Positions 28,484 to 35,337 of a stretch of DNA of 64,000 bases are shown piece by piece. The translations under genes and the position numbers were made by a program. Source of the DNA: an uncultured Planctomycetaceae bacterium. Its GTDB lineage: Bacteria > Planctomycetota > Phycisphaerae > UBA1845 > UTPLA1. The stretch spans positions 3,558-67,557 of the forward strand of contig CAZRFP010000001.1 in NCBI GenBank assembly GCA_964599535.1, read 5' to 3'. The stretch's first letter is position 1, and each line of letters begins with the position of its first letter. The notes below the pieces were generated by a model. The model ran no database searches, was not told the origin of the DNA, and saw only the letters and a program-made list of their open reading frames with translations.

Positions 28484-28753
28484 CTAAGAGTCCGGCGTTG
28501 TTAAAGTGCTGTTGGCGCAGCGCGAATCGGCCACGGATCGCGGGGCAACCGGCGGTCCGGCATCGCGAGAGAGACGCACGATATACTTCGCGTTGCACTG
28601 TCGACATCGAAATACGCGGCTGGGCGCGAGGCGGCGGAGAATCGCCGGATGCTCGCAATTGGGGCAGAGGACGTATGCCGGAAGCGCGCCAGCTTCGTTC
28701 GGCTCGATGTCTCGATACAGATTTCGGGCGACCATTTCCAGAAGTTCCTTCAC
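28484..28753 (-). CDS. small hypothetical Zn-ribbon protein
   Basis: 89 aa with CPNC...CRQC pairs and a GTG start. Convergent with the malic enzyme gene, with stops 10 bp apart. Confidence 0.4.
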   Translation of the reverse strand: MKELLEMVARNLYRDIEPNEAGALPAYVLCPNCEHPAILRRLAPSRVFRCRQCNAKYIVRLSRDAGPPVAPRSVADSRCANSTLTTPDS

Positions 28754-29015: not shown

Positions 29016-29054
29016 AAAAAAGCGAGGCCCCGGAAGAAAAATCCGGGGCCTCGC
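29016..29054 (-). terminator. rho-independent terminator of the giant exoprotein gene
   Basis: A 13-bp perfect stem GCGAGGCCCCGGA/TCCGGGGCCTCGC lies at 29022-29054. On the minus strand it is followed by TTTTTT (29021-29016). Confidence 0.8.
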
Positions 29055-29120
29055 TGGATGAACTTAAGTTGGCCGAACCGACCGCATGGGTCGGAATTGC
29101 CGAGTTGGTGACCGCGCGTC

Positions 29121-32100
29121 TTATGGCGCCAGCAACGCCGCGACCATGCCGTCCACGTCGCCGACATCCATCACGCCGTTGTCGTTGAAGTCACCGGGGC
29201 ACAGATCGGCCGTATCGACCGACTGATCCATGATGGCGTTGACGAAGAGCTGCAAGTCGGCGCCGTCCACGTCGCCGCTGCCATCCATGTCGCCGGTTGC
29301 CGGCGTTTCCGGATTGCCGCAGCCGCAGTTGCCGGGCGACGTCTTCTCCGGATCGTTCGGGCAGTCGTCTTCGCAATCGGGCGTGCCGTCTTGGTCGGAG
29401 TCGATGGGCGTGTTGATGCACTCGCCTGCATCGCAGACATCCTCGGTGCATGGGTCGTCGTCGTCGCATTCAATGTCATCGACGCAGCCTTCGCAATCAT
29501 CGGGGATGCCGTTGTGGTTGGCATCGTTCTGCGTGCCCGCGCCGAATTCGCAGCCGTCTGAAACGCCGTTTTCGTTGCAATCCGGCAGGTCCTGGCAGGC
29601 ATCGAGTATGCCGTCAGGCCGCGCCGGCGCGTTGCCCGTGTCGTTCAGGAAGGCTTCCAGATCGGCGAAATCCTGCGCGGTGAAGCCGGGGAAGGCGCCG
29701 CCGGGATGGTTGGTCGGCGGCAGGAGCTTGTTCGAGATGGTGGTTCTCGACTTGTTCCTCAGGCTCGGTCCGGGGCAGGGTCCGCCGGGTCCGCCGCAGT
29801 CAACGCCGAAAGCGCCGGGGCCGTGGCAGCCGAAGCAGAACGTGCTGATGAGAATGCCGCCGTCCGAAGGCGCGCCGGTCGGACCGCCGTCGCAGTCGCC
29901 GCCGCCGGCAGCGATGTCGCACTCGTCGGGAATGCCGTTGTTGTTGCAGTCCTGACTGGTGCCGTTGGCGATGTCGATGGCATCGGTGATGCCGTTCTCG
30001 TTGCAGTCGCACGGGTCGATCGGTTCGCCCTGTGTCGAGATGATCAGGCCCCAACTGACGAGCGAACCTGTATCACCCGAAGCGCGGTCGATCACACGCA
30101 GGTTCCAAGTGCCCTGTGCGTTCATGCCGTTGAATGCGCTGAGTGGGTTATTCGGCGTGTAGCTCGGCGGCGATGTCAGGTTTGTCGTGCAGCGGTCCTC
30201 AATGGTGCCGCCGACGCCCTGATCGTCGATGATCACGTTTACCAGGTTGTCCGCCGCGCAGCCATATGGCGATCCGGAATGGCACGTGCCGGCCTCGCCC
30301 ATGCGCTGAATCATGGCGACGGTTGTTCCGTTGTGCTCGATCTCAATGCACAGGTCGCCGACCCATGTGTGTGTGATGTTCAGCAGCACGTTGACATCCG
30401 TCACGAGGTAGGACGTGGGCACGGTGATGGTGCGCACGACGCCGGTCGCGTTGTTGTCCGGAATCGCGGCGGGGTAGCCCGCGCCGGAACCGTTGTATTC
30501 GTTGACAGCCGAGGAGGGTTCGCAATCGTCTGGAATGCCGTTGTTGTTGCAGTCGAAGCTGTTGCCGACGTCGATATCTTCGCCGTCATCAACGCCGTTG
30601 TTATTGCAGTCGCCGTTGGCGAACTGGCAATTTGAATTGCAATATTCACCGGGGGGATCGCACTGCTCGCCGGCCTCGACGATGTCGTTGCCGCATTCGC
30701 CGCAGGGGAACGCCGAGTTGGAGACGAGCAGATTGCCCGTGCCGAAGTTGCCGGAGTTCCAACCGCCGACGCGAATAAGATATCGCTGCCAGGCGACCAC
30801 CGGCGTGATGATCGTACTCTTGAATCCGCCGCCGCTCGCGCCGCAAGCGTTGTTCGGATCATCGTCGTTGCAGGCGACGAAGATGCGCGACGTGCAGCTC
30901 TCGCCGTCCCACGTGTAGAGCACAAGATCGGTGTCGTAGCTCGCGCTGCCGCCGAGCTGATCGCAGGTCGTGACCGTGAGCGTGCCGTTGCAGGGCGAGA
31001 GATAGTCATACCAGATGTCATTGAACGTCTGGCCGCCGTCGCCGGCCGTGACGCACTGGGCGTGTGGCTCGCCGTCGGTCGTCGCGCCGATCGTGCTGAA
31101 CGGATGGAGTCCGTCAGTGATCGGGAAGGCATCATCGCAGTTGTCATTCGTCTCGATCATGCAGTTGAAGCAGCCGTCGCCGGGGATGTCGTTGCCGTCG
31201 TCGCACTGCTCGCCGGGATCGAGTTCGCCGTTGCCGCACAGGCTGGGCGGCGCGGCACAGACGATCTTGTAGATCGAGCCGAGGATACTGACGACATACA
31301 TCTCGCCTGCGGCGTCTTCACCGAACGACACGATGCCTTGGATCGCGCCGCCGGCCGCCTGCTCTGTCTGCAAGTCCGTCACGCTGCCGTTGTAGCGGAA
31401 GCGCTTGATGTAGTTGCCCAGATAGTCGGCGTAGAAATACGAGCCGCTCAGCCAGGGCATTTCGCAGCCGCGATAGACATGGCCGCCGGTGATCGAGCCG
31501 GTGCCCTGTCCATCGCCGTGAGACTCTTCGCGAATCGGCAGGACCAGGCCGACGTTGCACGTGCAGCCCGAGAGACCGGTGCAGAGTGTGCCTTCCATGC
31601 AGCGCCAGCCGTAGTTTAATCCGCCCGGCGAACCGGCCGCGGTGAAGTTGATCTCCTCGCGGGCATCCTGTCCGACATCTGCGATCCAGAGATCACCCGT
31701 GAGCCGGTCGAAGCTGAATCGCCAGGGATTTCGCAGACCCTTGGCCCAGACTTCCGGCAGATGCGGTGAGCCGGGATTGTCGGCCGGCACATAGGTCGGC
31801 GGGTTATCGACATCGAGGCGGAGCATCTTGCCGAGCAGAGAGGCGTTGCTCTGCGCGCGGCCGAACGGATCGTTTGCGTTTCCGCCGTCGCCCATGCCGA
31901 CATAGAGCTTGCCATCGGGACCGAACTGGATGCATCCGCCGTTGTGGTTCGCGAAGTCTTGTGTGATGGTCTTCAGAATGGTGGCCGAACCGGCGTTCGC
32001 GGTGTTCGACGCGGGGTTGCCGCCCGTTGCCTGATAGCGCGCGACAACGGTGTTGCCCGACGTGTTCGTGTAATTTACGTAGAAGTAAGCGTTGTTCTGC

Positions 32101-34274
32101 CAATTCGGATGGAACGCAAGGCCGAGCAGTCCGCGCTCGCCGCTTGAGCTGACGATCGAACTCAGGTTCAAATACGGCGTGGCCTCGACCGTGTAAGACG
32201 GCAGATTCACGATCTTGATGCGGCCGGTCTGTTCGACGACGAACAGGCGCGACGTATCGCCCGGCGCGGCATAGACCCCGACCGGCACGCTGAGTCCGGT
32301 GATGACTTCTGAAAATGCAAGATTGCAGGGCTCAAACGACTGGCACTCGTCGGGAACGCCGTCATTGTTGCAGTCCTGACTGGTGCCGTTGGCAATGTCG
32401 TCCGAGTCTTCCACGCCGTTGGGCTGGCAGTCCTGTGGACCGATGGCCGGTCCGACCGTCGCGGCCGTGACGCTTGCGGGCGATCCGGTTCGGAAGAGCG
32501 TGAGCGTCGCGTTGGACGATGTTGGTGCCTGATCGCAGTCGAAGCGGAAGTTGTAGAGCGTTCCCCAGAGCAGGGCGTTCGAGTTTGCACCGATGTCGGT
32601 CATGGTCCAGCTTACGACGCCGCCGGCCGCGCTGCCGGTCCAGTCAGTGCCGTCGCGTGTGACGGCGCCCTCGCCGTCGTTGTCGTAGTAGTTCACATCG
32701 CGGAAGCCGATGTTGGAAACCGTCGCCGCCGGATCGACCGGAATGCTGAAGACCTTTACGCCGCGATGCGAATTCAAGTTCTGCACGGCGTATTCATAAT
32801 GGAAGAGTCCGCCGCCGATGTTGGTGGCTTTGGCGGAAACGATGATGAGTCCGTCGTTGGGCACCTGTACGTCGGTTTCGGTGACGCTGGGATCCTGATG
32901 TTTCCAGGCGCGGATGGCGCAATCGGAGCGCATCGTGGTTCCGGCGAGCGAGAAGGTGCGATTACCGCCGGCGCTACCGCCGACCGTGATCTGGCGATAG
33001 GAGGCGTTGTTGTTGTCGTTTCCTGCTTCGGCGTCGTCCTTGGCGATGTACTGCGACTCGACGAAGTACAGGGCGCCGGGTTCATTCAGATCGGCCTCGC
33101 GAATGCGCAGGCGTCGACCGGTGTTGGACGAGTAGCCGCCGGGATTGCTGATGGGATGGATGTGAACGCCGGTGGAGGGATTGACCTGCCACTTCGGCCC
33201 GGCGCCCGACTGTCCGCCGTTTCGCGTTGCGGCATAGGGATCGGCGCAGCCGACGCCCAGCGCGCTGCCGCCACTGCCGCTCTGACAGGTGCAGCAGAGA
33301 TTATTCTGGAGAGCGAAAAAGCCGTGCTTCAGCCATGACTGGCCGAGTTGCTCAAAGCGCGTGGCGCCGTCCGATGCGGTGTAGTAACGATAGAAGTTCT
33401 GGCCGATGACCGGGTGCAGACCAATGCCTCCCGAGTCGCCGGAAATCCACTGGAGCGTTTGCGTGCCGATGTTGCAGGAGTAGGTGCCGACTGAAAAGGC
33501 GTCATATAAAACGCCACCCACTGATTCCGATGCGTAATTCGCTATCTCGTGCATTTCACCGACGATCACGTCCGGGCCGGTGTTGCCCTGGCACGACCAG
33601 TCGCGCGGTGCGCCGTCGCCGTCGTCTTGGCCGGTCGAGGGGATCAGAACGTCGCCCATTTCGACCAGTGCGTCGCCGCCGGTCCAAGTGGCCGGCGCGA
33701 CGACTTCGAGCGCGCCGATGGACAATCCGGCGAGCTTGGGGCTTCCCATGGCGTCGGCCAGTTCTTCGCTGATCGCAAGGTGCGCCGCTTCGAGAAGGAA
33801 GCGGCTCGACGCATGATCCATGCCGATCTTTGCATCGGCCACATGCAGCATCGGGCCTTTGAGTGCGCTGCTGCCGCTGTAGATGTCGAACGATACGCCG
33901 TCTTCCGTGTCGATCGGCACGATCTTGAAACCACGCAGCACGATCGTCGCCTCGCCGTGGCGAATGATGATGTCGTCGCCATGGCGCAGATCGCCGATCG
34001 GTCGGCTGGTGAGCATTCCGCCGACTTCGGTAAGGCTCATCGACGCGCCGTCGTTGACGTGAAGCGCGACGACGTTCTGATCGAAGGCGGGATCGACGCG
34101 GAGCAGGTCCGCGTCGCCCTGCTGGATTTCGATGCCATACTGGTCGAGCGTCGGTCGATCGAGCAGCAGGCGCGTTTCACCACCGACAACAGCCCAGACC
34201 GAATCGGCCCGGGCCAAGCTGGGACACAAACAACAACAAAGTGCGAGCGCAGCGAGTGTGTACCTCTGGATCAT
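29121..34274 (-). CDS. giant secreted mosaic protein. Domains: PQQ-type (soluble glucose/sorbosone dehydrogenase-like) beta-propeller, Cys-rich repeat, proprotein-convertase P-domain, CXXCH module, TSP3-like repeats, dockerin-like C-terminus
   Basis: The start MIQRYTLAALALCCCLCPSLARA (signal peptide) has GGAGAAGG upstream. Propeller motifs are GLLGLAFHPNW, NHNGGCIQFGPDGKLYVGMGDGG, GLRNPWRFSFD and GLNYGW. The P-domain is THTWVGDL..GTWNLRV.D. The haem motif CFGCH lies at 29823-29837. DSDQDGTPDCEDDCPNDP is TSP3-like. GDMDGSGDVDGADL and GDFNDNGVMDVGDV are dockerin-like. Confidence 0.9.
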   Translation of the reverse strand: MIQRYTLAALALCCCLCPSLARADSVWAVVGGETRLLLDRPTLDQYGIEIQQGDADLLRVDPAFDQNVVALHVNDGASMSLTEVGGMLTSRPIGDLRHGDDIIIRHGEATIVLRGFKIVPIDTEDGVSFDIYSGSSALKGPMLHVADAKIGMDHASSRFLLEAAHLAISEELADAMGSPKLAGLSIGALEVVAPATWTGGDALVEMGDVLIPSTGQDDGDGAPRDWSCQGNTGPDVIVGEMHEIANYASESVGGVLYDAFSVGTYSCNIGTQTLQWISGDSGGIGLHPVIGQNFYRYYTASDGATRFEQLGQSWLKHGFFALQNNLCCTCQSGSGGSALGVGCADPYAATRNGGQSGAGPKWQVNPSTGVHIHPISNPGGYSSNTGRRLRIREADLNEPGALYFVESQYIAKDDAEAGNDNNNASYRQITVGGSAGGNRTFSLAGTTMRSDCAIRAWKHQDPSVTETDVQVPNDGLIIVSAKATNIGGGLFHYEYAVQNLNSHRGVKVFSIPVDPAATVSNIGFRDVNYYDNDGEGAVTRDGTDWTGSAAGGVVSWTMTDIGANSNALLWGTLYNFRFDCDQAPTSSNATLTLFRTGSPASVTAATVGPAIGPQDCQPNGVEDSDDIANGTSQDCNNDGVPDECQSFEPCNLAFSEVITGLSVPVGVYAAPGDTSRLFVVEQTGRIKIVNLPSYTVEATPYLNLSSIVSSSGERGLLGLAFHPNWQNNAYFYVNYTNTSGNTVVARYQATGGNPASNTANAGSATILKTITQDFANHNGGCIQFGPDGKLYVGMGDGGNANDPFGRAQSNASLLGKMLRLDVDNPPTYVPADNPGSPHLPEVWAKGLRNPWRFSFDRLTGDLWIADVGQDAREEINFTAAGSPGGLNYGWRCMEGTLCTGLSGCTCNVGLVLPIREESHGDGQGTGSITGGHVYRGCEMPWLSGSYFYADYLGNYIKRFRYNGSVTDLQTEQAAGGAIQGIVSFGEDAAGEMYVVSILGSIYKIVCAAPPSLCGNGELDPGEQCDDGNDIPGDGCFNCMIETNDNCDDAFPITDGLHPFSTIGATTDGEPHAQCVTAGDGGQTFNDIWYDYLSPCNGTLTVTTCDQLGGSASYDTDLVLYTWDGESCTSRIFVACNDDDPNNACGASGGGFKSTIITPVVAWQRYLIRVGGWNSGNFGTGNLLVSNSAFPCGECGNDIVEAGEQCDPPGEYCNSNCQFANGDCNNNGVDDGEDIDVGNSFDCNNNGIPDDCEPSSAVNEYNGSGAGYPAAIPDNNATGVVRTITVPTSYLVTDVNVLLNITHTWVGDLCIEIEHNGTTVAMIQRMGEAGTCHSGSPYGCAADNLVNVIIDDQGVGGTIEDRCTTNLTSPPSYTPNNPLSAFNGMNAQGTWNLRVIDRASGDTGSLVSWGLIISTQGEPIDPCDCNENGITDAIDIANGTSQDCNNNGIPDECDIAAGGGDCDGGPTGAPSDGGILISTFCFGCHGPGAFGVDCGGPGGPCPGPSLRNKSRTTISNKLLPPTNHPGGAFPGFTAQDFADLEAFLNDTGNAPARPDGILDACQDLPDCNENGVSDGCEFGAGTQNDANHNGIPDDCEGCVDDIECDDDDPCTEDVCDAGECINTPIDSDQDGTPDCEDDCPNDPEKTSPGNCGCGNPETPATGDMDGSGDVDGADLQLFVNAIMDQSVDTADLCPGDFNDNGVMDVGDVDGMVAALLAP

Positions 34275-34788
34275 TCCTACCTTCTCCCTTTTTAAGATTG
34301 CGAAAACCACTCCCTGTGCGGAGTGCGAAAACTCTGCATCGCGGCATAAGCAGCGAATCAAGCGCGGGTTGGAACTCGGTATCAGACGTCCCGTGTGGAT
34401 CGGTCGGACGGACGGGCGAGTGGAGAAAACATGTCGGAAACGTCCGCGTGGGGACGAACTCGCCCCGACTGCCTCTGGGACCTTTGCGGTACCGAGGTTC
34501 GGAAGGACCTACTCCTACCTACCCCTTATTGATATCTACTATTACCGGATCAGCAGGGGTGAATCAAGCAAACGCATCGGTGAAAAGTCCGTGAATCTTC
34601 GGCATGATGCTTGAGGGGCGAAAAAACGTGGACCTGCGCAAAAATTCCCATCACCCGACTTTCAGTAGATCGCGTGTTAACGCTACCAGGCTCGATGCCG
34701 GATTCCGGATTCACGCGCCGTTACGCACGATGTGCGCCTGCGTGTTCGCGCTACAATTGGCTCGCATATTTAGGAATCGGACGGCGCC

Positions 34789-35286
34789 GTGACATCAGGC
34801 GGCTCCGCTTATCGAAGACTGAGAGGCATGCTGACGCCGCTGGAGGACATTCCAAACCTGATCGAAACGCTCGCGCGCGATCCACGCGCGGGCGGCGAGA
34901 CGTGGACGCTCGCGCAGATCGCGGACCATCTGGCGCGGACGATTGAATGGCAGCTTGGCATGTCGCCGCCGGGAGGTCTGCCCGCGAGGCTGCCGCCGAT
35001 GTGGCTTCGTCGCGTGTATCGCGCGATCTTCCTTCGCGCGGGCCGGCTGCCTCGGAATGTGCCGACGATCGAATCGCTCGTTCCACCGCCGAACGTGATG
35101 CCGGCCGACGCGATCGCGCGGCTTCGCAGGTCGATCAAACTGCTCGGCGCGGCGTCGGAGCCGTTTCCGGCGCATCCATTCTTTGGTGTCATGACGAAGG
35201 CACGCTGGATTCGCTTTCATGAGGTACACGCGGCACATCATCTGCGAAGCGCGAAAGAAGCCGGGAAGGTGCAGCACGGGGCGTAG
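34789..35286 (+). CDS. DinB-superfamily protein (DUF1569-like)
   Basis: The segments WTLAQIADHLARTIEW and HPFFGVMTKARWIRFHEVHAAHHL are typical of the family. GTG start; the alternative is ATG 34828. Confidence 0.65.
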   Translation: MTSGGSAYRRLRGMLTPLEDIPNLIETLARDPRAGGETWTLAQIADHLARTIEWQLGMSPPGGLPARLPPMWLRRVYRAIFLRAGRLPRNVPTIESLVPPPNVMPADAIARLRRSIKLLGAASEPFPAHPFFGVMTKARWIRFHEVHAAHHLRSAKEAGKVQHGA

Positions 35287-35337
35287 AAAAAGGCCGTGCA
35301 GCTCGATGAAGGCCGAGAGTATGGGCTCCTTCGAATC

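Follow-up and report, generated by a model that had tools for sequence, protein, structure and literature searches.

A predicted exported planctomycete protein combining a glucose/sorbosone dehydrogenase-type propeller, a mono-haem cytochrome c module and an uncatalogued core domain

The window analysed here is a stretch of 64,000 nucleotides from an uncultured Planctomycetaceae bacterium (contig CAZRFP010000001.1 of assembly GCA_964599535.1, positions 3,558 to 67,557). Between positions 29121 and 34274, on the reverse strand, it carries a gene for a protein of 1717 amino acids, in which a six-bladed propeller of the glucose/sorbosone dehydrogenase (GSDH) family is followed on the same chain by a cytochrome c module. 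An initial annotation of the DNA had recognised a frame of this length with a signal peptide, named a DUF4215-like repeat, placed the propeller and a P-domain at boundaries with which those of Pfam agree, and given the position of a CFGCH motif exactly; the frame is intact, and its start is common to orthologues. One of these orthologues, P0002, is 89% identical to the query across 100% of its length. The features on which the proposed redox function depends are as follows.

29121-34274, reverse strand: complete gene, 1717 amino acids plus stop codon, an intact open reading frame
34206-34274, reverse strand: predicted signal peptide, residues 1-23, with cleavage after ARA; read from the sequence, the n-h-c pattern being found in orthologues too
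31293-32285, reverse strand: six-bladed GSDH propeller, residues 664-994 (PF07995, E = 2.1e-35, 123 bits against a cut-off of 25)
31944-31946, reverse strand: His777, by alignment the counterpart of the catalytic base (His144 of soluble glucose dehydrogenase, sGDH; GNHFGG in YliI), within ANHNGG
31728-31733, reverse strand: Arg848-Asn849, counterpart of the pair binding O5 and O4 of pyrroloquinoline quinone (PQQ; Arg228/Asn229 in sGDH, Arg430/Asn431 in CcPDH)
31314-31334, reverse strand: last-blade strand, IVSFGED by alignment in place of R-x-R-D-V
29610-29903, reverse strand: mono-haem class I cytochrome c module, residues 1458-1555, from its profile and Pfam Cytochrom_C
29823-29837, reverse strand: CFGCH haem-attachment motif, residues 1480-1484 (C1480, C1483 and H1484)
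29706-29708, reverse strand: His1523, at the position of the methionine haem ligand and invariant in the module alignment

A search of a protein collection returned 209 relatives, the best 120 of which were listed and counted. The named sources among these 120 are metagenome-assembled genomes of Phycisphaerae or Planctomycetota, and automatic annotation, where it gives a name, calls them 'PQQ-dependent sugar dehydrogenase'. Of the 120, 108 have one CXXCH motif or two, located in every case within the C-terminal part, against approximately 0.03-0.04 per protein expected from composition; when the query is shuffled, 4% of the resulting sequences carry one such motif. The relatives with a single CXXCH have in common a module of about 100 residues, DCDGGPxG..G..(I/L)F...CxxCH..DGxGG..PGPNIRN..R..IW..L.PPT.HPGG....F..QDFADLEAFL.D.G.RGRPD. 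When a profile of this module (A1; 22 diverse copies, 104 positions) was compared with the PDB, all 60 rows shown were c-type cytochromes or cytochrome-bearing proteins (best E = 2.8e-9), positions 10-83 of the profile being aligned to the cytochrome domains of QcrC. The Pfam families Cytochrom_C (PF00034, best E = 1.3e-7) and Cytochrome_CBB3 (PF13442) match 22 of the 22 copies. To judge from these comparisons, the CXXCH motif sits in a genuine cytochrome c domain, as the initial annotation had supposed in calling it haem-binding, and would be expected to carry haem. The haem-attachment machinery is encoded in the source genome (4.4 Mb in 292 contigs, 92% complete; genome-wide searches cover these contigs), where PF01578, of the CcsA/CcmC type, is found above its cut-off on two contigs.

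Both cysteines and the histidine of the CXXCH motif are invariant in the module alignment. An equally invariant histidine, His1523 in T-x-H-P-G-G, falls on the methionine of the NMP motif of QcrC, which would be the haem ligand in a class I fold; among the conserved residues of the module there is no methionine. This suggests a class I fold with His/His haem ligation, in which His1523 would be the sixth ligand. In other relatives the same C-terminal part of the chain is occupied by a di-haem module, CKECH...CIxCH, that Pfam recognises. As the similarity between the two modules is weak (E of approximately 1e-3) and driven by CXXCH, homology between them was set aside and they were handled as different modules. 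Since relatives carry either one or the other, a haem c module appears to be kept whichever its type. The mono-haem module occurs once in the source genome; matches to it in a large collection all came from this family, and 27 of the 30 carry a GSDH domain. The family is a large one, with more than 200 relatives in metagenome-assembled genomes of Phycisphaerae, ocean samples among them, and has in this compact module a cytochrome c of its own with a predicted His/His haem.

These data bear on the view that the product is a plain adhesin or structural surface protein, with a chance CXXCH that does not bind haem and a propeller that is a degenerate relic. The recurrence of CXXCH so far above expectation, combined with an invariant distal histidine and a cytochrome-like helix pattern, argues against it, as do the consistent matches of the module profile to cytochromes and the conservation, to at least 90%, of the active-site motifs of the propeller. 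We consider such a protein highly improbable.

The closest PDB sequences to the propeller are those of Hedgehog-interacting protein (E = 6.8e-35), followed by the PQQ sugar dehydrogenases 3A9G, 3DAS, 2ISM, sGDH and YliI, which match it with E values from 8.9e-23 to 1.2e-8. Active-site positions were compared by means of PDB alignments of Escherichia coli YliI and a canonical paralogue from the source genome, to which the query and its family were aligned. The NHNGG motif around His777 is conserved in at least 90% of the family; this histidine does not, however, discriminate between the possible functions, because Hedgehog-interacting protein keeps it too. The segment GLRNPW aligns with G(I/H)RNPQG of YliI, 2ISM, 3A9G, 3DAS and sGDH, whereas the Arg-Asn pair reads His-Asp in Hedgehog-interacting protein. 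The loop DVGQDAREEIN corresponds to E(H/Q)GP..DE(I/V)N, the equivalent in 3DAS being EFGQDTWDELN; the Ca2+ ligands of this loop in sGDH are main-chain carbonyls (Gly247/Pro248), to which a comparison of sequences does not reach. Within the family, RNPWRF, DVGQ and most of the loop containing EE(I) are conserved to at least 90%, and NYGW is kept, the asparagine at the same level and the tyrosine at 60-90%.

At the level of sequence, the query thus shares its catalytic histidine, Arg-Asn pair, loop of DE(I/V)N type and NYGW with the soluble PQQ dehydrogenases of the same GSDH family, namely YliI/Asd of E. coli (2G8S), 3A9G/3A9H of Pyrobaculum aerophilum, 2ISM of Thermus thermophilus, 3DAS of Streptomyces coelicolor and sGDH of Acinetobacter calcoaceticus (1C9U). 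Those enzymes differ from the query in being single-domain proteins with no fused cytochrome, and they are less similar to it than is Hedgehog-interacting protein; the query, for its part, lacks the last-blade R-x-R.

To establish how often propeller and haem occur together, 150 representatives picked through the N-terminal core domain alone were compared. A CXXCH motif is present in 14 of the 17 with a propeller and in 9 of the 133 without (odds ratio 64; Fisher p = 2.6e-11, a value that overstates the case because relatedness was not controlled). Two of the three propeller proteins that have no CXXCH are short (851 and 706 amino acids) and may be truncated. The use of two different cytochrome modules favours selection for the combination rather than mere inheritance. 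Together, the cytochrome c context, the conservation of CXXCH and its co-occurrence with the propeller make a redox pairing of the two modules plausible.

The explanation that we prefer, which could well be right although we hold it tentatively, is that the gene encodes an exported multi-module redox protein of an uncultured planctomycete of Phycisphaerae type, in which a propeller dehydrogenase passes electrons to haem c. The GSDH propeller would be the substrate-oxidising module, probably a sugar or glycan dehydrogenase, and its cofactor may be a scavenged PQQ-type quinone. Electrons would move from it to the C-terminal haem c module of the same chain and on, via a haem with His1523 in place of methionine as the likely sixth ligand, to an outside acceptor. 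The N-terminal beta-sandwich, the core, a galactose-binding-like module and the P-domain would act as targeting or binding modules, and the dockerin-like tail as a calcium-loop module of the sort present on at least 40 exported proteins of the organism. The conservation across the family of His777, Arg848-Asn849, the DVGQ..EEIN loop and NYGW is consistent with catalysis. Exported propeller-haem proteins are candidates for electron transfer outside the cytoplasm during polysaccharide breakdown.

Several observations weigh against this explanation. One is that the propeller's best PDB relatives, the Hedgehog-interacting proteins, are ligand binders and not catalysts. In the last blade, the R-x-R motif known to clamp the PQQ carboxylates (Arg406/Arg408 in sGDH) is found in 4 of the 4 bacterial PQQ sugar dehydrogenases aligned there (QRIRDV in YliI, 2g8s; ERIREV in 7cdy; GRLREV in 2ism; GRLRDV in 3a9g), sGDH and 3DAS lying outside the alignments obtained; the query has QGIVSF, with glycine and valine at the arginine positions, the consensus of its family is IVSFGED, and Hedgehog-interacting protein is similar, with ILGFGED. 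The NCBIfam model for a PQQ-dependent dehydrogenase, TIGR03606, gives the query 66 bits against a cut-off of 434.55, and a similar propeller from Teredinibacter turnerae, in TERTU_3803, showed no PQQ binding in vitro (PMC10916295). Propeller and haem are separated by more than 450 residues and three other modules, and the query's own haem module scores 17.9 bits with Cytochrom_C, where the cut-off is 21.3. A His/His haem is usually of low potential, and one such as is predicted here would fit PQQH2, reduced PQQ, poorly as a donor. Nor did five orthologue contexts, which differ from one another, yield a conserved operon partner or an acceptor. Finally, the nine core-domain proteins that have a cytochrome c and lack the propeller contain no other recognised redox domain.

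This last observation keeps alive a different explanation, in which the propeller is a ligand-binding module like that of Hedgehog-interacting protein, one more beside the core, the galactose-binding-like module and the P-domain, and the haem c is a tethered carrier reduced by some other donor, in the manner of Cbp2D. The ranking of the PDB matches, the loss of R-x-R and the failure of the T. turnerae propeller to bind PQQ all speak for it. Relatives with the core, DUF4215, a galactose-binding-like module and cytochrome c in the absence of a propeller exist, and the CjX183 cytochrome domain of Cbp2D (7b21) is itself among the PDB matches of the module profile, if weakly (E = 0.0058). Against it stand the catalytic histidine and Arg-Asn pair, conserved in at least 90% of the family although Hedgehog-interacting protein has lost the latter; the strong co-occurrence of propeller and cytochrome among proteins with the core domain; and the common pairing of six-bladed PQQ propellers with cytochromes c (bioRxiv 10.64898/2026.07.10.737718). 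On balance, we judge a tethered carrier of this kind to be somewhat unlikely.

The supply of cofactor bears on the same question. Neither pqqC nor a true pqqE was found in the 92%-complete genome, the matches to the pqqE model being generic and far below the cut-off; this too tells against a PQQ-dependent propeller and for a ligand-binding one. The absence of pqqC is weak negative evidence, because the search matched no control genome either. PQQ could also be scavenged, since E. coli has YliI yet makes no PQQ. The initial annotation had called the propeller PQQ-type, and on alignment this fits the catalytic histidine and the Arg-Asn pair; it does not fit the last blade, nor the failure to find pqqC and pqqE. 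The pocket looks maintained with the canonical carboxylate clamp gone, and PQQ dependence is best regarded as unproven; conserved arginines in VYRG and FRY are candidate substitutes for the clamp. So intermediate a set of residues could show whether propellers of the Hedgehog-interacting type bind a cofactor at all.

There are four GSDH genes in the source genome. Among the paralogues, C5 keeps one of the last-blade arginines and C11 none. In paralogue L017 (C30:18759-19964) a stand-alone propeller of the same subfamily, with the motifs ANHNGG, GLRNPWQFSFD and AFGED, is preceded by a signal peptide and followed by a dockerin-like tail; it lacks a cytochrome.

The ATG at 34274 is preceded by GGGAGAAGGTAGGA, with the Shine-Dalgarno-like GGGAGAAGG upstream, and the same methionine is the start in orthologues. 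A longer frame initiated at TTG (to 34361) was rejected as the gene, the ATG at 34274 and the signal-peptide pattern being common to orthologues, whose N-termini follow MIQRYT..LARA|DSVW. The query N-terminus, MIQRYTLAALALCCCLCPSLARA|D, reads by eye, rather than from a predictor, as a Sec signal peptide. The protein is accordingly predicted to be exported, the evidence reaching as far as passage across the inner membrane. For this reason the suggestion in the initial annotation of a self-contained surface redox enzyme can be followed in part: the redox pairing is plausible, whereas the evidence for location covers export from the cytoplasm and does not extend to the extracellular position.

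A periplasmic respiratory dehydrogenase is an alternative that largely overlaps with the preferred reading, because the path of the electrons is the same and only location and acceptor differ: sugar electrons would enter the respiratory chain via haem c, with the other modules and the tail as scaffolding. It is in keeping with a Sec signal peptide as the only export signal, no outer-membrane export signal being recognised in the protein, and with the attachment of haem c in the periplasm, CcsA being present. Published propeller-cytochrome complexes have, moreover, been modelled as feeding terminal oxidases (bioRxiv 10.64898/2026.07.10.737718). The genome contains no AA10 lytic polysaccharide monooxygenase (LPMO) that might act as an external partner, which also leaves a role as LPMO reductase without support. 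The composition of the protein points the other way. It contains 69 cysteines, and its Cys-rich repeats, galactose-binding-like module, P-domain and dockerin-like tail are typical of surface or secreted proteins; the tail recurs on 43 other reading frames of the genome. Homologues of T. turnerae proteins with such an architecture have also been found in secretomes (PMC12055684). A strictly periplasmic role seems to us rather unlikely.

The initial annotation had regarded this combination of domains as undescribed, but proteins joining GSDH-like propellers, cytochrome c and binding modules have been published (PMC10916295, PMC12055684, PMC8981238, PMC6881789). The nearest bacterial parallels are TERTU_3803, TERTU_2567 and TERTU_2913 of T. 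turnerae, extracellular redox proteins containing carbohydrate-binding modules (CBMs) (PMC10916295, PMC12055684). Like the query they are large and have among their parts a signal peptide, a GSDH- or SGL-like propeller, a c-type cytochrome and beta-sandwiches; secretomes have yielded homologues of TERTU_3803 and TERTU_2567, and the function of the group is unresolved (PMC10916295, PMC12055684). They differ in coming from Gammaproteobacteria and in their cytochromes: the X183 domains of T. turnerae, related to CjX183, are His/Met ligated (PMC10916295), with potentials of +11 to +124 mV, whereas the query has histidine for methionine. TERTU_3803 and TERTU_2567 carry CBM-type modules, and TERTU_3803 and TERTU_2913 X122 (Cip1-like) domains; in their stead the query has a propeller of the Hedgehog-interacting type, an uncatalogued core, a galactose-binding-like module, a P-domain and a dockerin-like tail.

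The pyranose dehydrogenase CcPDH of Coprinopsis cinerea, of AA8-AA12-CBM1 architecture (PMC4332668, PMC6881789, PMC5960967), likewise has a cytochrome and a binding module on one secreted chain with a six-bladed propeller of PQQ type, and its electrons pass from sugar to PQQ, to haem and to an external acceptor, an LPMO (PMC6881789, PMC5960967). It is, however, fungal, and where the cytochrome of the query is c-type, that of CcPDH is of b-type, an AA8 beta-sandwich whose haem has Met/His ligation. Arg621 of its last blade has no counterpart in the query, and CcPDH was not among the PDB sequence matches of the query at E <= 1. Six-bladed PQQ propellers encoded next to cytochrome c4 or c551 genes are reported to be widespread (Voutsinos et al., bioRxiv 10.64898/2026.07.10.737718); there too, the proposed acceptor of electrons is a class I c-type cytochrome with which the propeller is functionally coupled. 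In those pairs the two are separate periplasmic proteins from adjacent genes, with all nine PQQ residues of the CcPDH type and often lanthanide-binding residues; in the query they are fused in a single chain of 1717 amino acids and the set of PQQ residues is incomplete. Cbp2D of Cellvibrio japonicus resembles the query in that a small cytochrome of c-type is tethered to binding modules in a protein of several modules, here extracellular (PMC8981238, PMC12542752), but it has a CBM2 and no dehydrogenase propeller, and its cytochrome reduces LPMOs (PMC8981238).

Hence the logic of fusing a propeller to a cytochrome is already known from CcPDH and has been proposed for the mosaics of T. turnerae and C. 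japonicus. None of the bacterial propeller-haem proteins has a proven substrate, cofactor or acceptor. Particular to the query are a propeller of the Hedgehog-interacting type with a partial PQQ set, the family-specific mono-haem module of His type and the uncatalogued common core. The more novel part is the last of these, an N-terminal domain of approximately 400 residues.

The N-terminus and the modules that surround the propeller and the haem module are listed below.

33675-34205, reverse strand: optional N-terminal beta-sandwich, residues 24-200, modelled by AlphaFold2 with a pLDDT confidence score of ~90 or higher; absent from many relatives
32412-33599, reverse strand: core domain, residues 226-621, modelled by AlphaFold2 as a double beta-sandwich with a Cys/His/Trp-rich insert (pLDDT 91, pTM 0.92)
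31161-31244, reverse strand: DUF4215, or myxococcal Cys-rich acidic repeat, residues 1011-1038 (Pfam, 29 bits; NCBIfam TIGR02232, 25.9 bits)
30933-31151, reverse strand: galactose-binding-domain-like module, residues 1042-1114 (PF23759, GBD_T9SS_assoc, E = 2.4e-5)
30042-30401, reverse strand: proprotein-convertase P-domain, residues 1292-1411 (PF01483, E = 1.7e-8, 34.9 bits against a cut-off of 21)
29352-29468, reverse strand: Cys-rich Dicty_CTDC-like repeat with one TSP3-like acidic motif, residues 1603-1641
29124-29330, reverse strand: dockerin-like tail with two Ca-loop/helix repeats, residues 1649-1717 (PF00404, E = 0.087)

The initial annotation had left a beta-rich region of about 600 residues at the N-terminus unassigned. 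It is indeed beta-rich and matches no family, but it is not a single unit: mapping the coverage of relatives divides it into an optional part (approximately residues 1-220) and a core (approximately 220-640) that is present in nearly all of the relatives listed. In a 627-residue AlphaFold2 model of the N-terminal region, built with 75 homologues (pLDDT 88), a disordered linker connects a beta-sandwich (residues 24-200) to the core. The optional beta-sandwich has no match among Pfam or NCBIfam families, and Pfam did not detect HtaA in it. Foldseek gave for the 627-residue model a local match to the haem-binding C-terminal domain of HtaA (6jsa; prob 1.0, TMt 0.55, 194 columns), which probably covers the optional beta-sandwich, the output giving no query range.

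Profiles of the core domain found no match in Pfam, NCBIfam or PDB sequences. Foldseek comparison of the AlphaFold2 models with the PDB otherwise retrieved only generic arrays of beta-sandwiches, with template-modelling scores of 0.29 or less (arrestin, the legs of integrin and the adhesins SdrG, SspB and Als), to which no fold was assigned. An exhaustive HMMER search placed the domain in 2,773 clusters (50% identity), mostly from Planctomycetota; for 1,345 clusters the match reached E <= 1e-30. Among 121 genomes sampled from the phylum, 23 contain it, in 1-11 copies each, and it is present at no fewer than 490 loci of GTDB species representatives, the best 80 of which are almost all from uncultured Planctomycetota. 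In many of the proteins concerned, nothing accompanies the core except a signal peptide and a dockerin-like tail. The source genome has three further copies, at C8:36232-37419, C7:21445-22578 and C98:5507-6598, with neither propeller nor CXXCH.

These results supply what can be said for an adhesin, since the structural matches of the core are to beta-sandwiches of adhesin and arrestin type and most proteins with the domain, including the three paralogues in the genome, lack both propeller and cytochrome. Trp, Tyr, Asn, His, Lys and Arg are prominent among the invariant residues of the core, which also has four conserved cysteines, a pattern that we conjecture to be compatible with a glycan-binding or glycan-active site. 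His287, Lys316, His317, Asp345 and Tyr347 (core positions 62, 91, 92, 120 and 122) belong to the invariant set. On a further reading, the core would be a new catalytic or substrate-presenting domain of Planctomycetota, coupled in this protein to the propeller and to a low-potential His/His haem c in a cell-surface oxidoreductase acting on a polymer or mineral; proteins with the core and cytochrome c but no propeller would then be its minimal redox form. This we think decidedly unlikely. In any case, a well-predicted domain of about 400 residues that thousands of planctomycete proteins carry, and for which neither Pfam, NCBIfam nor the PDB has an entry, merits a family of its own and a structure.

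Of the smaller modules, the galactose-binding-like one falls just short of the PF23759 cut-off in the query (25 bits against 27) and exceeds it in relatives. The Dicty_CTDC match (PF00526, E = 2.6e-5) is below cut-off. The initial annotation had listed TSP3 repeats next to it, of which one motif of TSP3 (thrombospondin type 3) kind, DSDQDGTPDCEDDCPND at residues 1625-1641, can be seen by eye as a single copy, whereas Pfam detects no TSP3 in the protein. Pfam likewise found no CBM family in it. A linker of the form CNxNGxxDxC occurs four times, at residues 635, 1242, 1443 and 1566 (within 29925-32400 on the reverse strand), and separates the major modules.

The 69-residue tail scores 13.5 bits with Dockerin_1 (PF00404), against a cut-off of 22.9, and its match to a dockerin in the PDB, 5lxv_B, has E = 0.23. 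The dockerin-like tail of the initial annotation is nonetheless legible in the sequence as a duplicated loop, D-x-D/N-x-D/N-G, each followed by a helix (GDMDGSGDVDGADLQLFVNAIM and GDFNDNGVMDVGDVDGMVAALL). Anchoring through it, which had also been proposed, did not survive a search for cohesin partners: PF00963 has no match in the 92%-complete genome, which has 43 Dockerin_1 matches (E <= 0.01), including 28 that individually exceed the cut-off. Cellulosome-type anchoring was therefore rejected, and the tail is better seen as a general module of the exported proteins of this organism. Dockerin-like tails are thus not readable as cellulosome anchors in this phylum.

The gene is flanked by the following elements.

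34275-35337, reverse strand: upstream intergenic region of 1,063 bp, the gap to the next upstream gene
29021-29055, reverse strand: intrinsic terminator 66 nucleotides past the stop codon, a 14-bp stem (11 G-C pairs) followed by TTTTTT

The terminator had been noted in the initial annotation as strong and belonging to the gene itself, with which its stem and T-run (29055 to 29021) agree; an upstream untranslated region of about 500 bp had also been given, where the gap in fact measures 1,063 bp. Neither an Rfam family (at E <= 1) nor a sigma-70-like promoter was matched in these 1,063 bp. Two blocks of the region, one distal of about 400 nucleotides and one of about 250 adjoining the ATG, are 80-100% identical to the relative L008, and so are conserved at least as well as the gene is over its first 1,500 nucleotides (88% identity). 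The G+C content of the gene is at the level of neighbouring sequence.

The gene is monocistronic. Its upstream neighbour encodes a regulator of the MerR/B12 type, and downstream lies a convergent gene for malic enzyme. This gene and a small zinc-ribbon frame, also downstream, are the sole neighbours common to the closest three contexts, and comparison of neighbourhoods gives no functional clue. In L009 (GCA_019636475.1), where the orthologue is 69% identical, the upstream neighbours, which are not present in the 64-kb window, form a possible extracellular redox neighbourhood. One of the two (L009:2343-4409, reverse strand) encodes 688 amino acids with five CXXCH motifs and a faint match to an MtrC/MtrF domain; the other, also large (L009:1-2286, forward strand), has a weak match to a copper-binding protein of MopE type and faint matches to TSP3 and the P-domain. 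The zinc-ribbon frame itself (28484-28735, reverse strand; approximately 83 amino acids with the motif CPxC...CRQC) lies on the same strand as the large gene, beyond its terminator. L008 and L009 both retain it, similar in sequence and likewise placed between the large gene and that for malic enzyme.

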